Positions 4,958 to 64,000 of a stretch of DNA of 64,000 nt are shown here, piece by piece. The stretch lies in NCBI GenBank assembly GCA_036002485.1, contig DASYTI010000019.1:11990-75989 (forward strand). Reading direction: 5' to 3'. The position numbers were made by a program, and so were the translations under genes. Below the pieces are notes generated by a model. That model was not told the origin of the DNA, did not search any database, and saw nothing but the letters and a program-made list of their open reading frames with translations. Position 1 is the stretch's first letter; every line of letters starts with the position of its first letter. The stretch comes from Candidatus Methylomirabilota bacterium (lineage in GTDB: Bacteria; Methylomirabilota; Methylomirabilia; Rokubacteriales; CSP1-6).

Positions 4958-4998
4958 GGGGGGAGGCTTCGGAAGGGGGGCAAAGCCCCCCTCCGAGT
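4958..4998. repeat. GC-rich palindromic hairpin repeat (REP-like), copy 1
   Basis: tggggggaggcttcggaaggggggcaaagcccccctccgagtt. Directly abuts the stop codon of the minus-strand SBP gene. Near-identical copy at 62019..62060. Confidence 0.7.
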
Positions 4999-6357
4999 TT
5001 AAACTTCATAGATTTTCTTCAGCTCGCCTTCCGCCCACTTCACGGCATCCTCGGCCTTCGTGCCCTGACAGGCCTTCGCGTACATATCGACGATGATGTA
5101 CTTCGTGTAGGACTCCGTGGCCTTGGCCGAGGCGGGGCCGGGATAACCCAGCATCCGGGTCTGGCGCGCCGCCTGGCGGAAGACCTGCAGGGGCTTGTCG
5201 ACCCGGCTCCACATCGGATCATCCTCCCAGGCCTTGGTGGCGCCGACGGTATAGCCCTCGTTCACCTGGAACCACTTCCCGTAGTTCTCCTTCTGGTGCA
5301 TCCACTTGAGGAGTTCCTTGGCCGCCTTCTGGTTCTTCGAGTATTTCATGATCGAGTGCTGGAAGGCGCCGTACAGCGCGAATTGCCCGCCCGGCCCCTT
5401 GGGAAGCAGCGCCTCGTGCTCGATGTCCTGGTACAGGGGCTCGCCCTTCTCGTCCTTGAGCTTGTCCTTCTGCCGCTTGGCCACGATGTAGATGGAGGCG
5501 CCGTTGAGGGTGGCGGAGATGTCGCCGGAGTGGAAGGCGCGGTTGTTGTTCGTGTCGTCCCAGGCCAGCCCGCCTTCGTCGCAGGCGTCCTTCCAGAAGG
5601 CCTGCATGAACTTCACCGACTCGATGGCGCCCTTGCTGTTGATGACGACCTTCTTGCCGGTCTTGTCCACCTCGGCGCCCCCGAAATCCCAGAGGAGGGG
5701 ATAGGCGAAGGTCGGCGGATCGCCGAAGCTGTGGCCGAGGGCCTGGCCCACCGGCTTGCCCTTGGCCTTGAGCTTCTTGCCCACCTCGCGCCACTCGTCC
5801 CAGGTCTTCGGGAACTCCTTGACGCCGATCTCGGCGTGCCAGGACCGGCGGTAGGCGATGGCGTTGCCACCTGTGCCGTGCGGAACGGCCAGCCAGCGAT
5901 TGCCGACCTTCGCGGTGCTGGAGAACACATCGTAGTAGCCGCCCTGCGCCTTGCCGATGGGCTCGGCCACGTCCGAGACGTCCACCAGGCCGTTGGCATA
6001 GAGATGCGGCCAGTTCCAGAGCATCTGGATGATGTCGGCGCCGCTGCCGGACTGGATGGCGGCGGTGATGCGGGCCTGCAGATCATTGGCATTGATGAAC
6101 TCGAACGTGACCTCGGCCCCGAGCGCTTTCGAGGCCTCCGGCGCCTGGCGCTTGAGCTCCACGTCCGCCTCGGGAATGAAGTCCACCCAGCGCAGGATGT
6201 GCACCTTCGTGCCCTGGGCGAAGGCCGGCGCGCGCCGCGCGGCCAGAATGCCCTCGAGCCCCGCGGCTGCGAGGCCCGCCGCGGCGGACCCCGCGATGAA
6301 CCGTCGACGCGTCACGCCGGGAATTGCCGTCTGCCCATCGAGCCCTGGAGTCGTCAT
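4999..6357 (-). CDS. ABC transporter extracellular solute-binding protein, tandem paralog of 3526..4881, Tat signal
   Basis: 452 aa, roughly 65-70% identical to the downstream SBP along its full length (VTRRRFIAGSAAAGLAAAG..., FMQAFWKDACDEGG..., DMYAKACQGTKAEDAVKWA). Confidence 0.85.
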   Translation of the reverse strand: MTTPGLDGQTAIPGVTRRRFIAGSAAAGLAAAGLEGILAARRAPAFAQGTKVHILRWVDFIPEADVELKRQAPEASKALGAEVTFEFINANDLQARITAAIQSGSGADIIQMLWNWPHLYANGLVDVSDVAEPIGKAQGGYYDVFSSTAKVGNRWLAVPHGTGGNAIAYRRSWHAEIGVKEFPKTWDEWREVGKKLKAKGKPVGQALGHSFGDPPTFAYPLLWDFGGAEVDKTGKKVVINSKGAIESVKFMQAFWKDACDEGGLAWDDTNNNRAFHSGDISATLNGASIYIVAKRQKDKLKDEKGEPLYQDIEHEALLPKGPGGQFALYGAFQHSIMKYSKNQKAAKELLKWMHQKENYGKWFQVNEGYTVGATKAWEDDPMWSRVDKPLQVFRQAARQTRMLGYPGPASAKATESYTKYIIVDMYAKACQGTKAEDAVKWAEGELKKIYEV

Positions 6358-21516: not shown

Positions 21517-21726
21517 CTTTCGAGCTGAGCCGCTGCCCCGCATTTCGAGTTGAGCGGTGGCCGATGGCCGCCGCGAGACGAGAGCTGAGTTGATTCGAGG
21601 TGAGTGGCGGCCAGCGGCCATCGCGAGACGAGGGCTGAGTGGAGCGCGCAGGCCGCAGTTCGAGCTGAAGGGCGAAGCCCTGAGGCGAGGGCTGAGTGGA
21701 TCAGCGGCGAGGCGAGTGCTGAGACA
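21517..21726 (+). repeat. Tandem array (about 3.5 units) of a ~45-50 bp intergenic repeat, consensus TTCGAG(C/T)TGAG...GCGAG(A/G)CGAGGGCTGAGTGG
   Basis: Units at roughly 21541-21591, 21592-21641, 21642-21698, and a partial unit at 21699-21722. Lies between the amidohydrolase stop and the PF06684 gene start. Confidence 0.75.
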
Positions 21727-32739: not shown

Positions 32740-32830
32740 CAGATGCGAGGCGGCGCCCGAAGGTCGCACGCGAGGCGTAGTTCTCACTCAGCCCTCGCCT
32801 CGCGGCTGCGTCCCTCAGCTCGAACGGCCA
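32740..32830 (-). repeat. Copy of the ~45-bp repeat family (inverted orientation) between convergent genes
   Basis: The reverse complement of 32784-32829 is GGCCGTTCGAGCTGAGGGACGCAGCCGCGAGGCGAGGGCTGAGTGAG, nearly identical to unit 3 of the tandem array. Confidence 0.65.
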
Positions 32831-57751: not shown

Positions 57752-59893
57752 TTGACCCAGCTCGAGACGCTCATAGAGGAGATCCCGAAGTACCAGCCGG
57801 GCGCGAACCTGGATCTGGTCAACCGCGCCTACCGCTTCTCCGAGCTCAGCCACCGCGGCCAGCAGCGCGCCTCGGGTGAGCCGTACCTCTCGCACCCCCT
57901 GGAAGTCGCCGGCCTCCTCGTGAACTTCAAGATGGACGTGACGACGGTTACCGCCGGCCTCCTTCACGACGTGCTCGAAGACACCGAGGCGACCAAGGAC
58001 GATCTCGAGCGAGAGTTCGGCCGGGAGATCGCCGACCTCGTGGACGGCGTGACCAAGATCGGCAAGCTCGCCTTCTCGTCGCGCGAGGAGCGGCAGGCCG
58101 AGAACTTCCGGAAGATGGTCGTGGCCATGGCCCACGACCTGCGCGTGCTCATGATCAAGCTGGCCGACCGTCTCCACAACATGCGCACCCTCGACTACCT
58201 CCCGCCCGACAAGGGGCGGAAGATCGCCCAGGAGACGCTCGACATCTACGCGCCCCTGGCCCACCGTCTCGGCATGGCCAAGGTCAAGGCCGAGCTGGAG
58301 GACCTGGCCCTCCGGGTCATGCAGCCCGAGGACTACCAGGACCTGATGCGCCGGGTGGCCAAGCGCCGCCTCGAGCGCGAGGCCGAGATCAACCAGCTCA
58401 TCGCCATCCTCCAGGAGAAGCTGGGGGAGGTGGACATCGAGTCGAAGATCGCCGGGCGGCCCAAGCACTTCTACTCGATCTGGAAGAAGATGCACGAAGG
58501 GGGGCGCGAGTTCGACGAGATCTACGATCTCACCGCCGTGCGCGTGCTCACCAAGACCGTGCGCGACTGCTACGGTGCCCTGGGCGTGATCCACTCGCTC
58601 TGGAAGCCCGTGCCCGGCCGCTTCAAGGACTTCATCGCCATGCCCAAGGTCAACATGTACCAGTCGCTCCACACCACGGTCATCGGGCCCAAGGGCGATC
58701 CGGTCGAGATCCAGATCCGAACCTGGGACATGCACCGGGTGGCAGAGGAGGGGATCGCCGCGCACTGGCTCTACAAGGAGAAGAAGAGCGAGCGCGACCG
58801 CTTCGACGAGGCCTTCGTGTGGCTCCGGCAGCTCGTGGAGTCGCAGAGCGATCTCAAGGACTCGCAGGAGTTTCTCGACTCGGTCCGTCTCGATCTCTTT
58901 CCCGACGAGGTCTACGTCTTCACCCCCAAGGGCGACGTCAAGGCGCTCCCGGAAGGCTCGACGCCGCTCGACTTCGCGTACGCCGTCCACACCGACGTGG
59001 GCCACCATTGTGTGGGCGCCAAGGTCAACGGCAAGCTGGTGCCCCTCCGCTACACCCTGCGCCAGGGCGATATCGTCGAGATCGTCGCCTCGCCCACCCA
59101 GCACCCGAGCCGCGACTGGCTCAAGATCGTCAAGTCGAGCCGCTCCAAGGCCAAGATCAACCAGTGGCTGAAGATCGAGGAGCGCGCCCGCTCTCTCGAG
59201 CTCGGCCGCGAGCTCTTCGACCGGGAGGCCAAGAAGTATCGGCTGGTCCCCGCCACGCTCCTGGCCTCGGAGGAGATGAAGAAGCTCCTCGTGGAGCTCG
59301 GCTTCTCCTCGGCCGACGACCTGCTCGCCTCCGTGGGCTATGGCAAGAGCTCGGTGCACCAGGTCCTGGGCAAGCTCGCGCCCGCCGTGGTCCACGACGA
59401 GCCCGCGCCCGACCGGACGGCCAAGGCGCCGCGCAAGGCCGAGGGCGCTGTTCGCATCCGGGGCGTGGACGACGTGCTCGTGCGCTTCGGCAAGTGCTGC
59501 TCGCCCGTGCCGGGCGACGGCATCGTGGGCTTCATCACACGGGGCCGAGGACTGACGGTGCACGCGCGCGACTGCCTGACCGTAGTCAAGAACGTGCTCG
59601 ACAAGGAGCGGCTGGTGGCCGTGGAGTGGGACGGGGGCGAGCCCGCCACGCGCCCGGTCAAGATCGCCGTCTACATCGGGCGCGACCGTCCCGGCCTCCT
59701 CGCCGAGATCACCGCGGCCATTTCCTCGCGCCACGGCAACATCACCAAGGCGGAGATCACCGTCACCGACGACCGGAAGGGCATCAACCATTTTGTCATC
59801 GAGGTGGAGGACCTTCAGCAGCTGCAGGGCATCATGCAGAGCATCCGCGAAGTGAAGGACATCGTGAACGTGGAAAGAGTCCGCGGGCTCTAG
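57752..59893 (+). CDS. relA: Bifunctional (p)ppGpp synthetase/hydrolase (RelA/SpoT/Rel)
   Basis: HD hydrolase domain (HPLEVAGLL..HDVLEDT), synthetase domain, TGS, and ACT (GLLAEITAAISS). TTG start with GGAGGG RBS. Confidence 0.92.
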   Translation: MTQLETLIEEIPKYQPGANLDLVNRAYRFSELSHRGQQRASGEPYLSHPLEVAGLLVNFKMDVTTVTAGLLHDVLEDTEATKDDLEREFGREIADLVDGVTKIGKLAFSSREERQAENFRKMVVAMAHDLRVLMIKLADRLHNMRTLDYLPPDKGRKIAQETLDIYAPLAHRLGMAKVKAELEDLALRVMQPEDYQDLMRRVAKRRLEREAEINQLIAILQEKLGEVDIESKIAGRPKHFYSIWKKMHEGGREFDEIYDLTAVRVLTKTVRDCYGALGVIHSLWKPVPGRFKDFIAMPKVNMYQSLHTTVIGPKGDPVEIQIRTWDMHRVAEEGIAAHWLYKEKKSERDRFDEAFVWLRQLVESQSDLKDSQEFLDSVRLDLFPDEVYVFTPKGDVKALPEGSTPLDFAYAVHTDVGHHCVGAKVNGKLVPLRYTLRQGDIVEIVASPTQHPSRDWLKIVKSSRSKAKINQWLKIEERARSLELGRELFDREAKKYRLVPATLLASEEMKKLLVELGFSSADDLLASVGYGKSSVHQVLGKLAPAVVHDEPAPDRTAKAPRKAEGAVRIRGVDDVLVRFGKCCSPVPGDGIVGFITRGRGLTVHARDCLTVVKNVLDKERLVAVEWDGGEPATRPVKIAVYIGRDRPGLLAEITAAISSRHGNITKAEITVTDDRKGINHFVIEVEDLQQLQGIMQSIREVKDIVNVERVRGL

Positions 59894-59917: not shown

Positions 59918-60289
59918 ATGACGCACACGGAGTTCGAGACGCTCGTCGAGCGGGCCCTCCGTACCTTGCCCCGCCGGTTCAAAGACAAGATCAGCAACGT
60001 GGCCATCGTGGTGGAGGACTGGGCGGACGAGGAGACCCTGGAGCAGGTCGGCATCGAGCCGCCCGACACCCTCTACGGCCTCTACCGGGGCATCGATCTC
60101 ACCCGCCGCGACACCTCCTACGGCAATGTCCTGCCGGACACGATCCACATCTATCAAGGGCCGATCGAGGAGGACTGCGCCGATGCCGAGGAGATGGCCG
60201 AGCTCGTGCGCGACACCGTGATCCACGAGATCGGACACTATTTCGGTCTCGATGACGACACCATGGAAGACATCGAAGGCCACGAGTAG
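59918..60289 (+). CDS. Metallopeptidase-like protein (PF06262-type, HExxH)
   Basis: 123 aa, with HEIGHYFG zinc-binding motif. Confidence 0.7.
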   Translation: MTHTEFETLVERALRTLPRRFKDKISNVAIVVEDWADEETLEQVGIEPPDTLYGLYRGIDLTRRDTSYGNVLPDTIHIYQGPIEEDCADAEEMAELVRDTVIHEIGHYFGLDDDTMEDIEGHE

Positions 60290-60366: not shown

Positions 60367-60395
60367 TTGACAGCATTTTCATTTGTCCTTATGGT
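60367..60395 (+). promoter_or_regulatory. Near-consensus sigma70 promoter (TTGACA, 17-bp spacer, TATGGT) with an A/T-rich UP-like tract
   Basis: ttgaca-gcattttcatttgtcct-tatggt lies in an AT-rich island 40-70 nt upstream of the ATG at 60433. Confidence 0.55.
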
Positions 60396-60432
60396 TTCAG
60401 CGTACGCTGAAAATTATGGAACAAGTGAAACG

Positions 60433-61479
60433 ATGGACAAAACGCAGAGTATCGTGCGGTCAGCGGCCCAGTGGCTTCGGGACCTCCTTCCGAAAGCCAC
60501 CGGTTGGGAGGAGCATGCCGGTTTCAAGGTCGGCAGCCAAAGGGCCGATCTCGTGATCAAATTCAAATTCGGCGGAGAAGAGCAGACGCTGCTTCTCGAA
60601 ATCACTTCGCTCGGTCAGCCCCGCCAGATCCGGGAGACCATCACCCGTTTGGGGGAGCTGCGCGCCGAACTGGGCGGGGCCTATCCGGTGGCCGTGGCGC
60701 AATACATCAGCCCCCAGGGCGCGGGCATCCTGAAACGGAACGGTCTCGGATATCTCGATCTCTCGGGAAATTGCCATCTGGCCTTTGGCAATGTGCTCAT
60801 CGAGAAGGAAGGCAAGCCCAATCTCCGGCCCTCGACGCGGCCGCTCAAGTCGCTCTTCGCGCCGCGCGCGACGCGCGTGATCCGGGCCCTCCTTGCCGAG
60901 CCCGCCCGCCTGTGGCGGCTCGATGAGCTCGCCAAGGCCTCGCAGGTCAGCCTCGGCCACGCGCACAACGTGGTCAAGCGCCTCGTCGAGCTCGCCTGGC
61001 TGGATCGGGGCGAGCAGCAGCGGATCCAGCTCAGCAAGCCCGCCGACCTCCTCGACGCATGGGTCGACGCCTACACGTACCGCCTCAACGAGGTCTCCAC
61101 CTACTTCTCTCCCGAGCGGATCACCCGCAAGCTCGTGGGCGAGCTCGCCCGCGTTGCTCAGGAGGAGGGCCGGCGCTTCGCTTTCACGCTCCATTCCGGC
61201 GCCGCCCTCGTCGCGCCCAACGTCCGGTTCCCGGCTATCCACTGCTATCTCGAAGGCGATCCCGAGCCGGTGGCGAGGGTGCTGGGGCTGAGACCGGGTG
61301 ATGACGGGGGTAATGTGCACCTGCTCGCGCCCTATGATCCTGGCGTCTTCCACGCGCCCATAACGAAAAGCGGCGTGCCCGTGGTGTGCCTGCCCCAGCT
61401 CTATGCCGATCTCTATCACTATGAGCGGCGTGGCCGTGAACAAGCGGCCCATATCCGCCGCGAAGCCATGGGCTTCTAG
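60433..61479 (+). CDS. Hypothetical protein with central winged-helix DNA-binding region (possibly AbiEi-like)
   Basis: 348 aa. wHTH-like LDELAKASQVSLGHAHNVVKRLVELAWL. A near-consensus sigma70 promoter sits upstream. No family assigned with confidence. Confidence 0.6.
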   Translation: MDKTQSIVRSAAQWLRDLLPKATGWEEHAGFKVGSQRADLVIKFKFGGEEQTLLLEITSLGQPRQIRETITRLGELRAELGGAYPVAVAQYISPQGAGILKRNGLGYLDLSGNCHLAFGNVLIEKEGKPNLRPSTRPLKSLFAPRATRVIRALLAEPARLWRLDELAKASQVSLGHAHNVVKRLVELAWLDRGEQQRIQLSKPADLLDAWVDAYTYRLNEVSTYFSPERITRKLVGELARVAQEEGRRFAFTLHSGAALVAPNVRFPAIHCYLEGDPEPVARVLGLRPGDDGGNVHLLAPYDPGVFHAPITKSGVPVVCLPQLYADLYHYERRGREQAAHIRREAMGF

Positions 61480-61503
61480 GCGGGGAAGGGAGGTGACGCT
61501 TCT

Positions 61504-61575
61504 ATGAAGAAGAAAGCCAAGAAGAAGAGCGCAAAGAAGCGCAAGAAGGCGACGAAGAAGGGGCGGCGGCGGTAG
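61504..61575 (+). CDS. Micro-ORF encoding a 23-aa polybasic peptide MKKKAKKKSAKKRKKATKKGRRR
   Basis: GGGAAGGGAGGTGA Shine-Dalgarno sequence 7 nt upstream of the ATG. Immediately follows the hypothetical gene. Confidence 0.4.
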   Translation: MKKKAKKKSAKKRKKATKKGRRR

Positions 61576-61589
61576 CCGACGTCGAGCGT

Positions 61590-61690
61590 TCGAGTCGAGA
61601 CGGTGCCCGATGTTCGAGTTGAGCGGCGAAGCCGCGAGACGAGGGCTGGGTTGATCCCGCAGGCGTGGCAGTTCGGCTGAGTTGACGAAC
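61590..61690 (+). repeat. Copy (about 1.5 units) of the ~45-bp repeat family between the two micro-ORFs
   Basis: tgttcgagttgagcggcgaagccgcgagacgagggctgggttga matches unit 1 of the array at 21541. Confidence 0.65.
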
Positions 61691-61715
61691 GCAGCGGAAA
61701 GGGGGTGACTTCCTA

Positions 61716-61757
61716 ATGGCGAAGAAGAAGAAGGCGGCCAAGAAGAAGAAGAAGTAG
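61716..61757 (+). CDS. Micro-ORF encoding a 13-aa polybasic peptide MAKKKKAAKKKKK
   Basis: GGGGGTGA Shine-Dalgarno sequence 7 nt upstream. Paralogous in architecture to 61504..61575. Confidence 0.3.
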   Translation: MAKKKKAAKKKKK

Positions 61758-62018
61758 CGTGATCGGTCGGTGGGAGGTGGCGGCCTTCCATCGACGCGTT
61801 CCACGCTCTGTGAGCAGGTCACCCGGCGGGGGGCGGCAACGCTCCTCGCCGGGCTCCTGTTTCCCGGCTAGACGCAGGAGTCTGTCTCAGTAATCTCGAT
61901 GCCCTCACGAGCAGGAATGTCACATTTCGAGCGCCGGCTTCGCCGGCCCAGTTCTCGGATTGCTCGCCTCGGGCGGCGGGGCCCCAGCCCCGCGACGTCC
62001 TCCGGCTCGCACTGGGTC

Positions 62019-62060
62019 GGGGGGAGGCCCCGGAAGGGGGGCGGAGCCCCCCTCCGAGTT
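62019..62060. repeat. GC-rich palindromic hairpin repeat (REP-like), copy 2
   Basis: cggggggaggccccggaaggggggcggagcccccctccgagtt. Directly abuts the rpmB stop codon. The stem GGGGGGC/GCCCCCC is conserved, the loop differs. Confidence 0.7.
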
Positions 62061-62062
62061 CT

Positions 62063-62260
62063 CTAGACGACCTTGACGACCTTTCCGGCTTTCAGGCAGC
62101 GAGTGCAGACGCGCAGGCGCTGGACGGTGCCCGCGTCGCCGATCTTGCCCCGCATCGAGACGAGGTTGACGAGCCAGCGCCGCTTCGTGACATTGTGGGC
62201 GTGACTGATCTTGTGGCCGACGGACGGGCCTTTCCCGCACACATCGCAACGCTGAGCCAT
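62063..62260 (-). CDS. rpmB: 50S ribosomal protein L28
   Basis: MAQRCDVCGKGPSVGHKISHAHNVTKRRWLVNLVSMRGKIGDAGTVQRLRVCTRCLKAGKVVKVV. Hidden inside the long track ORF 62063..62713. Confidence 0.88.
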   Translation of the reverse strand: MAQRCDVCGKGPSVGHKISHAHNVTKRRWLVNLVSMRGKIGDAGTVQRLRVCTRCLKAGKVVKVV

Positions 62261-62342
62261 GCCGACTCCTTGAGGGGATCTGCGCCTGATTTGCCGGACG
62301 CGAGGCCCTTTTATAGCATGATCGGGTGAGCGGAGCAACGAC

Positions 62343-64000
62343 TTGACCCCCACCGGCCCACGATCCCTCGGCGCGGCGTCTGAGCCCGCGGCCAAGCCCG
62401 GGCCCCGCACGCGTCTGGAGGCGCTTCCCGGAGTCGGCCCGCAGCGCGCGAAGCTCCTCGCCAAGCTCGGACTCGTCACCATCGAGGACGCGCTCGGCCA
62501 GCACCTGCCCAGCCGACACGAGGACCGCAGCCAGATCCTCCCCCTCGGGCGTCTCACGGTGGGCGAGGCGCGCACGTGCGCCGGTACCATCGCGGGGATC
62601 AGCCCTCCCCCGAGGGGACGGCCGCGCATGCCCTTGACCGTCATGATCCGCGACGCCAGCGGCTTCCTCCGCTGCGTCTGGTTCAACCAGCCGTACCTGG
62701 CGCGAGTCTTCAAGCGCGGGCAGTACCTGATCGTGCACGGAAAAGTCCAGCCCTATGGCCGTGGTCCCCTCCAGATGCAGGTCAAGGACTACGAGCTCGT
62801 CGAAGACGAGGAGGACGAGACGCTCCACACGGGCCGGCTCGTCCCCGTCTATCCGGCCACCGAGGGCCTGACCCAGCGCCCCCTGCGTCGTTTGATGAAG
62901 CGTCTCGTAGACGGATGGGCCGATACGATCGAAGATCCATTGCCGGCGACCGTCCGCGAGAAGCTCGGCCTTCTGCCCCTGGGCCAGGCCATTCGGGGCG
63001 CTCATTTCCCGGATACGGATGCCTCGCAGTCCCTGGCCCGCGGCCGACTCGTCTTCGACGATTTCTTTCTCCTGGAGATCGGCCTCGCCCTTCGCCGGCA
63101 CCGTGAGGGCCGTCGGCGCGGCCTCGCCATGAATCCCCGGGGCGACCTGGCCCAACGTCTGCTCGCGGGGCTGCCCTACACGCTGACGGCCGCCCAGGAG
63201 CGCGTCCGGCGCGAGATCAAGATGGACATGGCCGAGCCCTATCCCATGAACCGCCTGCTCCAGGGCGACGTCGGCTCGGGCAAGACCGTGGTGGCGGCGT
63301 TGGCCATGGTCACGGCCATCGAAGCCGGCTACCAGGCGGCCCTCATGGCTCCCACGGAAATCCTGGCCGAGCAGCACATGATGACGCTGCAGGCGCTCCT
63401 CGAGCCCCTGGGCGCGCGCGTCGTCCTGCTCACCAGCGCGGTCAAGGGCAAGGCCCGACAGGCGGCCGTGGAGGCCGTGGAGAGCGGCGCGGCCGCCTGC
63501 GCCGTGGGCACCCACGCCCTCGTGCAGGGGGGCGTGGCCTTCAAGCGGCTGGGTCTCGCCGTCATCGACGAGCAGCACCGCTTCGGGGTGGGGCATCGCG
63601 CGGCCCTCCGCGGCAAGGCCGAGAGTCCCGACGTCCTCGTCATGACGGCCACGCCGATCCCGCGCACCCTCGCCCTCACCCTCTACGGCGACCTCGACGT
63701 CTCCGTGCTCGACGAGCTGCCGCCCGGGCGCAAGCCGGTGCGCACGGAGGCTCGCGAGGAGAAGGCCCGGCAGAAGATCTACGCCTTCCTTCGCGACGAG
63801 ATGACGGCGGGCCGGCAGGTCTACGTCGTCTGCCCGCTCGTCGAGGAATCCGAGGTCTCGGATCTCCGCGCCGCCACCGAGGTGGCCGAGCGGCTGCAGG
63901 GGCAGGTGTTCCCGGAGCGTCGCGTGGGACTGATCCACGGCCGGCTGGGTTTCCTGGAGAAGGAGCGCGTCATGCGGGAGTTCAAGGAGGGCGCCCTCCA
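62343..64000 (+). CDS. recG: ATP-dependent DNA helicase RecG (5' part, continues beyond window)
   Basis: Wedge/OB region, then helicase motif I GDVGSGKT, motif II VIDEQHRFG, motif III MTATPIPRT. Candidate TTG start with GGAG upstream. No stop before the window end. Confidence 0.85.
   Translation, partial: MTPTGPRSLGAASEPAAKPGPRTRLEALPGVGPQRAKLLAKLGLVTIEDALGQHLPSRHEDRSQILPLGRLTVGEARTCAGTIAGISPPPRGRPRMPLTVMIRDASGFLRCVWFNQPYLARVFKRGQYLIVHGKVQPYGRGPLQMQVKDYELVEDEEDETLHTGRLVPVYPATEGLTQRPLRRLMKRLVDGWADTIEDPLPATVREKLGLLPLGQAIRGAHFPDTDASQSLARGRLVFDDFFLLEIGLALRRHREGRRRGLAMNPRGDLAQRLLAGLPYTLTAAQERVRREIKMDMAEPYPMNRLLQGDVGSGKTVVAALAMVTAIEAGYQAALMAPTEILAEQHMMTLQALLEPLGARVVLLTSAVKGKARQAAVEAVESGAAACAVGTHALVQGGVAFKRLGLAVIDEQHRFGVGHRAALRGKAESPDVLVMTATPIPRTLALTLYGDLDVSVLDELPPGRKPVRTEAREEKARQKIYAFLRDEMTAGRQVYVVCPLVEESEVSDLRAATEVAERLQGQVFPERRVGLIHGRLGFLEKERVMREFKEGAL

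Follow-up and report, generated by a model that had tools for sequence, protein, structure and literature searches.

Conserved oligolysine micro-ORFs beside rpmB in Rokubacteria: candidate genes for a family of very small polycationic peptides

Can two open reading frames (ORFs) of 23 and 13 codons, whose deduced products are dominated by lysine, be genuine genes, and what might such peptides do? The question is raised by a stretch of 64,000 nucleotides (nt) from a Candidatus Methylomirabilota bacterium (Rokubacteriales; contig DASYTI010000019.1 of assembly GCA_036002485.1, positions 11,990 to 75,989), hereafter the window, in which the two micro-ORFs, ORF1 and ORF2, stand in tandem upstream of the convergent ribosomal protein gene rpmB. 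An original prediction, made from the letters of this DNA, described them as a pair of poly-lysine micro-ORFs, each 7 nt past a Shine-Dalgarno (SD) sequence; the sequence and the ORF listing bear out their place, peptides and spacing exactly. The reading that we favour, and to which we give about half of our confidence, is that the micro-ORFs are genuine, heavily translated genes whose oligolysine products would act in trans as nucleic-acid-binding polycations.

ORF1 is located at 61504-61575 on the + strand (ATG to TAG, 23 amino acids (aa), MKKKAKKKSAKKRKKATKKGRRR, net charge +16) and ORF2 at 61716-61757 on the same strand (ATG to TAG, 13 aa, MAKKKKAAKKKKK, net charge +9). Lys codons account for 12 of the 23 codons of ORF1 and 9 of the 13 of ORF2. 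The calculated monoisotopic masses of the peptides are 2768.81 Da (ORF1) and 1515.02 Da (ORF2), or 2637.77 and 1383.98 Da when Met is removed. Their SD sequences, SD1 (GAAGGGAGGTGA, 61485-61496, + strand) and SD2 (GGAAAGGGGGTGA, 61696-61708, + strand), each end 7 nt before the ATG. When a canonical 16S rRNA 3' tail was assumed, the SD-antiSD duplex energy was -21.4 kcal/mol for SD1 and -20.4 kcal/mol for SD2; the best duplex obtainable for the 39 long ORFs of the window was -14.8 kcal/mol, with a median of -9.7 kcal/mol. On that assumption the 12-nt SDs of the micro-ORFs are the strongest of the window, in keeping with the earlier impression that the ORFs are built for translation.

ORF1 and ORF2 are the only K-rich micro-ORFs in the whole 64-kb window. 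Further, no K-rich micro-ORF of at least 13 aa was found in 0.94 Mb of recG neighbourhoods from other phyla, and none outside the module in 730 kb of Rokubacteria loci. The sequence AAGAAGAAGAAG, with at most one mismatch, occurs six times in the window (0.07 expected), four times in ORF2, and AAG runs are about 80-fold above expectation, mostly within ORF2. The ORFs are purine-rich and largely unpaired in the predicted RNA fold.

The original prediction held that a lack of conservation in related genomes would favour a non-coding role or chance ORFs in AAG-rich DNA. The relatives sampled, about 90, belong to the Rokubacteria clade (phylum Methylomirabilota) of uncultured soil bacteria. Seven lineages were retrieved through ribosomal protein L28, the product of rpmB, alone (L28 75-95% identical to that of the window), and in all seven both micro-ORFs lie between rpmB and a gene for a protein with an AbiEi_2 domain (AbiEi-like gene). 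Their ORF pairs include MAKKKAAKKSAKRKKATKKAKKRR with MAKKKKAAKKKKK, MPKRKKAVKKGGKKKATKKGKRK with MAKKKKAAKKKKK, MKKKAVKKGGKKKAVKKGKKR with MAKKKATKKKKK and MAKKKATKKGKKR with MAKKKATKKKKK. A metagenome scan using the pattern of H1, a hairpin downstream of ORF2, gave at least 80 loci. The order AbiEi-like gene, ORF(s), H1 and convergent rpmB was found in 78 of them, and the two exceptions were unrelated chance matches. Across the 78 loci, the AbiEi-like protein is 56-93% identical and its gene ends mostly 104-284 nt upstream of H1; L28 is 63-98% identical, with rpmB convergent and mostly 68-224 nt downstream of H1. A poly-K ORF of 10-16 aa that ends 11-20 nt before H1 was present in 93 of the 95 H1-bearing Methylomirabilota/Rokubacteria loci, and the micro-ORFs are thus conserved as ORFs. 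Two micro-ORFs were present in 60 of 83 distinct modules and one in the other 23. The loci counted are often phylogenetically related, and the counts are not numbers of independent events.

All versions found are intact ORFs of 10-25 codons in the Lys frame. The start codon is ATG, or GTG in a few versions of ORF1, and is mostly placed 7-8 nt past the SD (about 11 nt in a few loci); GAAAGG(A/G)GGTGA precedes ORF2 in all relatives. ORF2 is 10-16 aa long and ORF1 is bimodal, with 11-13 or 20-25 aa. We tallied 37 distinct ORF1 peptides of 11-25 aa, each in frame with its own SD, and 20 distinct ORF2 peptides, the latter ORF having 42 distinct nucleotide versions. The peptides use only K, A, R, G, T, V, S and P, plus one internal M and one H. 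They contain no aromatic, Leu, Ile or Phe residue, and an acidic residue occurs in a single case, the Glu-bearing ORF2 variant MARKKEEKKKKK. Synonymous variation is seen among GCA, GCG and GCC, between AAG and AAA, and between TAG and TAA. In ORF1, where Lys is often exchanged for Arg, 54 of the 74 Arg codons (73%) are CGN. Since CGN codons interrupt the purine run while the charge is kept, they argue for selection on peptide charge in ORF1 rather than on an AAG RNA element. The stop codons of the micro-ORFs are TAG in 98, TAA in 51 and TGA in 1 of 150 cases, compared with TGA in 18 of 36 genes of the window. TGA is the commonest stop in the window's genes, and all micro-ORF stops but one are of the kind read by release factor 1 (TAG/TAA). 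From this pattern of variation we consider it highly probable that the micro-ORFs are coding.

A separate observation concerns four European Nucleotide Archive contigs named contig_N (L095, L096, L097 and L098), in several of which recG, relA and the AbiEi-like gene are fragmented; ORF1 is frameshifted in L095. These breaks look like indel errors of long-read assembly rather than biology, and ORF1 of L095 was left out of the evidence.

Public annotation misses the micro-ORF genes. When 10 ORF1 variants were looked up exactly in a collection of 15 billion proteins, one was present, as a 'hypothetical protein'. The literature on poly-lysine or polybasic micro-ORFs, on small proteins of Rokubacteria and on AbiEi with small ORFs yielded no description of the family. 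Profile searches of Pfam and NCBIfam with ORF1 variants, which are low-complexity queries, gave no match at E <= 10; phmmer against the whole PDB gave none at E <= 10, and neither a PADLOC search with ORF1 variants nor BLASTP of the micro-ORF peptides against bS22 gave any. The positive controls for phmmer did work: eL41 retrieved 24 PDB sequences, THX retrieved 7 and bS22 of M. smegmatis retrieved its family at 1e-13. The micro-ORF peptides, low-complexity queries as they are, thus appear to have no sequence similarity to bS22, THX or eL41, and the suggestion that they might be bS22 or THX fails as a statement of homology. They would rather form an undescribed mini-protein family, closest in mode to the tiny polybasic proteins that bind nucleic acids.

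The proteins eL41, bS22, bL37 and bTHX have 24-33 residues, contain more than 50-60% Lys plus Arg (61% in bS22), are often unannotated and bind rRNA through charge, and eL41 is of a size similar to that of the micro-ORF peptides (PMC10618245). ORF1, with 20-25 aa in many lineages, falls within their size range, and the micro-ORF genes adjoin a ribosomal protein gene. In contrast to these proteins, the micro-ORF peptides go down to 10 aa and vary in length, and their genes come as a tandem pair with a dedicated hairpin. Another class to compare is that of the histone-H1-like tails of AlgP, Hc1 and HU/Hlp, which are Lys/Ala-rich sequences of low complexity (K, A, S, T, P and G) and are presumed to bind DNA or RNA by charge. 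The micro-ORF peptides have this composition in common with them. However, the tails are domains of larger proteins, whereas the micro-ORF products would be free-standing peptides of 10-25 residues, each with its own strong SD. Because the Lys/Ala composition is closer to that of the histone-H1-like tails, binding to the nucleoid or to RNA in general seems about as likely as binding to the ribosome.

Where did the second ORF come from? The original prediction noted a repeat element between the ORFs and proposed that it had duplicated them. A dispersed short repeat is indeed present there, within an insertion of about 95 nt (approximately 61591..61684), but the insertion is limited to this strain and its closest relatives. 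It is missing in loci L122 and L178 (98% L28 identity) and has a shorter form in L105 and L182, and close strains differ only in the insert between the ORFs. Relatives without the insert carry both ORFs, 33-76 nt apart; therefore the tandem ORFs are older than the insert, and duplication by the repeat element is not supported. ORF1 and ORF2 are nucleotide-identical in L120, L151 and L179, with a rare AAA codon common to both in L151, which indicates that the pair arose by tandem duplication with gene conversion. In the lineage of the window, ORF1 has become longer and has gained Arg.

The repeat itself has a unit of about 37-50 nt, TTCGAG(G/T)TGAGCGGCG...GCGAGACGAG(A/G)GCTG(A/G)GTTGA. Elsewhere in the window, two tandem copies stand at 21544-21640, followed by further partial matches up to 21694, and one copy stands at 32789-32825 (- strand); this dispersed intergenic repeat looks like a repetitive extragenic palindromic (REP)- or miniature inverted-repeat transposable element (MITE)-like element of this genome. 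A second variable insert lies between rpmB and H2, the hairpin that follows H1. A 42-nt GC-rich hairpin-forming repeat, GGGGGGAGGCCCCGGAAGGGGGGCGGAGCCCCCCTCCGAGTTCTC, is located at 62019-62060 and 4958-4999 (90% identity), and one of these copies, which is part of the second strain-variable insert, directly adjoins the stop codon of rpmB.

We next describe the transcript on which the micro-ORFs would be carried. The AbiEi-like gene (348 aa, 60433-61479, + strand) is the first gene of the predicted operon and lies directly upstream of the micro-ORFs, as it always does in module loci. No strong SD is visible before its ATG. A sigma-70-type promoter is predicted at 60367..60395 (+ strand), with a -35 element TTGACA at 60367-60372, a 17-nt spacer and a -10 element TATGGT at 60390-60395. 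The sequence AAGTTTTT precedes the -35 element, the whole upstream arrangement reading AAGTTTTTGC-TTGACA-N17-TATGGT. Of 63 distinct relatives, 61 have TTGACN-N16-18-TANNNT at the same site before the AbiEi-like gene, and it is this conservation, with the near-consensus match, from which we infer promoter function. Directly after the -10 element lies a perfect 18-nt palindrome, TTTCAGCGTACGCTGAAA (60395..60412), which is kept as TTTCAGC-NNNN-GCTGAAA in nearly all relatives and is a candidate operator for the winged-helix protein encoded downstream, or a 5'-terminal mRNA hairpin. In single-ORF lineages, the SD of the micro-ORF begins right behind the AbiEi-like stop codon and therefore leaves no space for a separate intergenic promoter. 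The micro-ORFs are thus predicted to be the distal cistrons of an operon with the AbiEi-like gene first and the strong-SD ORFs last.

The AbiEi-like protein matches Pfam AbiEi_2 with 29.4 bits (cut-off 21), and HTH_IclR just below its cut-off. Its AlphaFold2 model has a mean predicted local distance difference test (pLDDT) score of 73, so that only a domain-level statement is safe. With Foldseek, the model matched NucS/EndoMS, restriction enzymes and IclR regulators, and we model the protein as an N-terminal PD-(D/E)xK-type fold, an IclR/MarR-type winged helix and a C-terminal AbiEi_2 domain. There are 1416 homologues, 68-99% identical among the 120 listed, and the gene is a single-copy, syntenic core locus in every relative. 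No gene for an AbiEii (DUF1814) nucleotidyltransferase was called in any locus, and the micro-ORFs occupy that slot; PADLOC gave no AbiE match on the locus, just weak matches to its PDC-M05A model. The label 'AbiEi antitoxin' is doubtful for this 348-aa protein because it is encoded by a single-copy core gene without AbiEii, has an extra N-terminal domain and lacks a PADLOC AbiE match.

Two hairpins follow ORF2. H1 (61767..61794, + strand) has a 9-bp core, GGTGGGAGG / CCTTCCATC, and the loop TGGCGG, and its consensus downstream of ORF2 is CGGTGGGRGG-TGGCGG-CCTYCCACCG. It was present in all seven lineages found through L28 alone, which are independent of the H1 search. H1 occurs once per locus and is absent from the 0.94 Mb of controls from other phyla. 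All 50 sequence variants keep the core paired, and the pairs at its two variable places are always GC, GU or AU; covariation is weak, as the stem hardly varies and the sample was picked by pattern. G.U pairs, which are frequent, fit the ORF strand alone, and therefore H1 is expected to act as RNA of that strand. H1 and H2 are both stable in the minimum free energy (MFE) and centroid folds. The 5' arm of H1 is SD-like (GGGAGGUGG) and its 3' arm contains CCUCC. H1 may stabilise the 3' end, may pair up with H2 in folding, or may be bound by the peptide, by the regulator or by the 30S subunit.

H2 and its U-rich tail were found at 61822..61863 (+ strand) by a terminator scan. A GC-rich stem of 12-14 bp is located 30-60 nt past H1 in all 79 distinct modules, and the tail has a mean of 3.8 T per 10 nt on the ORF strand, compared with 2.2 at the matching place on the strand of rpmB. 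The U-tracts, like those of many genomes with high GC content, are short. H2, which abuts the rpmB stop codon in many lineages, is thus predicted to be the intrinsic terminator of the micro-ORF transcript.

Other roles for H1 were also considered. A terminator of rpmB was rejected, as H1 has no U-run within reach on either strand; for lack of a U-run, H1 is not the terminator of the micro-ORF transcript either. A DNA operator or recombinase core site with a 9-6-9 inverted repeat is less likely, given that the mismatches are always G.T in the ORF-strand orientation and that there is no promoter at this place. As an anti-SD mimic for SD2, the 3' arm could form only 5 bp, which we judged too weak. 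An Rfam scan of 61300-62400 gave no match at E <= 10. A parallel is offered by lambda N-boxB and Tat-TAR, pairs of an arginine-rich peptide and an RNA hairpin. In the module, too, a small conserved hairpin that lies shortly before a terminator adjoins the coding sequence of a short basic peptide; however, the micro-ORF peptides are Lys-rich rather than Arg-rich, and the parallel is only an idea for what H1 may do.

The order of genes upstream of the module in the window is relA/spoT (57752-59893), a gene for a zincin-like peptidase (59918-60289) and the AbiEi-like gene. The next gene after the micro-ORFs is, as the original prediction had it, convergent rpmB (62063-62260, - strand; Pfam Ribosomal_L28, E = 1.5e-20), and recG begins beyond it, at 62345. 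We regard rpmB as context, a convergent neighbour of the micro-ORF unit. In related loci, relA lies 1.5-6 kb upstream of the module on the same strand and the zincin-like gene 1.2-4 kb upstream. Loci L112, L118, L128, L132 and L136, as well as L142, L153, L173 and L174, have 1.3-2.7 kb of extra DNA between the zincin-like and AbiEi-like genes, with the junction between the operon and rpmB intact. The linkage to relA and the zincin-like gene is therefore looser than that to rpmB. Where a source name is given for an L28 homologue, it is Methylomirabilota or Candidatus Rokubacteria. RecG had no close relative among the matches listed when about 600 candidate stretches from species representatives of GTDB were scored; those matches came from other phyla at about 50% identity, 53% at best. 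The same strain was found in Joint Genome Institute (JGI) soil metagenomes, with a 1-nt difference between L001 and L002 over the region.

Are the micro-ORFs attenuation leaders? Like hisL, thrL, pheL and trpL, they have 10-25 codons, are dominated by one amino acid and are followed by hairpins that include an intrinsic terminator. Unlike those leaders, they stand at the 3' end of an operon with nothing encoded downstream on their strand, their Lys codons lie outside the stems and end 11-20 nt before H1, and Lys and Arg are exchanged in ORF1. A transcription attenuator was rejected, as the terminator H2 and convergent rpmB follow the ORFs in all lineages and H1 and H2 both form; the only alternative to be seen by eye, in which the 3' arm of H1 would pair with the 5' arm of H2, is weak. 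The micro-ORFs close an operon that has a conserved promoter and a terminator after it, and are therefore not attenuation leaders, as had been argued from the lack of a downstream gene on the + strand.

Three further candidates were set aside. The peptides contain no Leu, Ile, Phe, Trp or Tyr, which, with the lack of a conserved antisense frame, speaks against a type I toxin. On the opposite strand of the micro-ORFs, no frame, start codon or SD is conserved among the relatives, and an antisense poly-Phe/Leu peptide was rejected on these grounds. A programmed frameshift or read-through, suggested by the dnaX-like set of SD, Lys codons and hairpin, was rejected by inspection because AAG AAG is no slippery heptamer and the spacer length covers all values modulo 3.

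How, then, would genes of this kind work? In the mechanism that we propose, a single mRNA would give little of the winged-helix regulator and very large amounts of an oligolysine of 10-25 residues. The peptides would act in trans, as diffusible polycations on nucleic acids, and their target would be either rRNA, in a function like that of eL41, bS22, bL37 or THX, or DNA and the nucleoid, in the manner of the Lys/Ala tails of the histone-H1-like proteins. The winged-helix protein would probably set the peptide level via the promoter palindrome, and the purpose of having two ORF copies, which gene conversion keeps identical in several lineages, would be dosage. We provisionally take H1 to be a 3' stabiliser or a specific binding site on the operon mRNA.

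Several points weigh against this reading. The SD energies assume a canonical 16S 3' tail, not that of the lineage itself. The loci L103-L182 were picked by the H1 pattern, and the conservation of H1 among them is built in. The range of 11-25 aa in the length of ORF1 fits a defined rRNA pocket poorly. In the tiny polybasic ribosomal proteins, Arg is about as frequent as Lys and 4-8 residues are hydrophobic or aromatic, whereas the micro-ORF peptides are of a Lys/Ala-only kind. ORF2 is nearly Arg-free, with 3 AGG codons against 353 Lys codons, and may reflect a requirement for Lys codons rather than for charge. Further, a simple peptide gene leaves the near-invariant H1 unaccounted for.

The last two points lead to the explanation that competes best, a translation device acting in cis in which the peptide is irrelevant. 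In such a device, the strong SDs would bring ribosomes to short Lys-codon ORFs at the mRNA's 3' end, and these ribosomes would either shield or adjust the AbiEi-like mRNA or report Lys-tRNA or translation capacity through the folding of H1 and H2 and so control termination and read-through antisense to rpmB. An ORF2 of near-pure Lys, essentially without Arg, would suit such a sensor, as would its stop codon 11-20 nt before H1, near the leading edge of a terminating ribosome. The sequence conservation of H1 and its restriction to this site would be explained, by inspection CCUCCC of its 3' arm and the G-run of H2's 5' arm could form pairs, and relA lies upstream on the same strand. However, no same-strand gene is available downstream for control, and every one of the 79 modules has a strong hairpin as H2. 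Neither stem contains the Lys codons, so that a stalled ribosome would mask no stem arm, and the spacing from the stop to H1 is variable. The free Lys-to-Arg swaps of ORF1 over 11-25 codons fit charge selection better than codon sensing, and an attenuator needs no two independent ORFs. We consider a cis-acting device unlikely, but worth keeping in view.

The upstream protein invites a different explanation, in which the poly-K peptides would be the effector, or 'toxin', of a degenerate AbiE-type module, placed in the abiEii slot under an AbiEi-like autorepressor. AbiE operons are bicistronic and AbiEi autoregulates through inverted repeats (PMC3985639, PMC7319586). The order of regulator and effector and the promoter palindrome of the present operon match that arrangement, and the upstream protein has a winged helix and an AbiEi_2 domain, with a second cistron after it. 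In contrast to the AbiE type IV toxin-antitoxin systems, no DUF1814/AbiEii nucleotidyltransferase gene was found at the loci and PADLOC reported no AbiE. The locus is chromosomal, single-copy and syntenic across the clade, as a core locus in every relative and not a sporadic mobile module. Further, translation would favour the putative toxin by far over the antitoxin, which is the opposite of toxin-antitoxin logic, and the peptides are without the hydrophobic character of known small toxins. We judge this explanation quite improbable.

Could the ORFs instead be incidental to a non-coding element of purine-rich RNA or DNA, for instance an AAG repeat to which protein binds, or a 3' untranslated region (3'UTR)? 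The sequence is of low complexity and AAG-rich, it matches no protein family, and within 5-7 groups of loci that have the identical ORF2 peptide MAKKKKAAKKKKK the nucleotides vary little. A non-coding element would not explain, however, why the ATG, the in-frame stop and an SD mostly at 7-8 nt are kept in 93 of 95 loci, why all versions found are intact in the Lys frame, or why CGN Arg codons substitute for AAG and Ala codons vary at the third position; Rfam, too, was null even at E = 10. Its probability is very low. Polylysine-type peptides can be antimicrobial and a zincin-like peptidase gene lies 1.2-4 kb upstream, but exported antimicrobial or cell-penetrating polycations, or precursors of RiPPs (peptides made by the ribosome and modified after translation) processed by such neighbours, are scarcely credible here, as the peptides have no signal or leader sequence and no hydrophobic face, the operon has no transporter or modification enzyme, and in several lineages the zincin gene and the operon lie apart, with 1.3-2.7 kb of other DNA between them.

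Beyond genuine genes whose oligolysine products act in trans, a bolder possibility, which we put forward tentatively and to which we give a substantial though lesser chance, is that peptide, very strong SD and hairpin make up a categorically new functional unit, a dedicated and regulated free-oligolysine system in Rokubacteria. It would be unrelated to known families of ribosomal proteins, leader peptides or toxins. The peptide might, for example, recognize an RNA partner and so tune termination or the fate of the mRNA near rpmB, or it might be induced by stress and, as a polycation, condense ribosomes or the nucleoid. If this were true, the micro-ORFs, at 10-13 codons, would be shorter than any other conserved protein-coding gene so far noted in bacteria.

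For experiments, H1 and the promoter palindrome are concrete points of entry. Genes of this size systematically escape gene callers whose length cut-off is set at about 30 codons. The locus touches on how many tiny polybasic peptides that bind the ribosome or the nucleoid are still to be discovered after bS22, bL37 and bL38, on how simple cationic peptides aid RNA function, and on how very strong SDs and the choice of stop codon are used for extreme expression of micro-ORFs. If the peptides are made, they would add an unannotated mini-protein family to an abundant uncultured phylum of soil bacteria, and an oligolysine with a few alanines would be near the simplest possible functional gene product.

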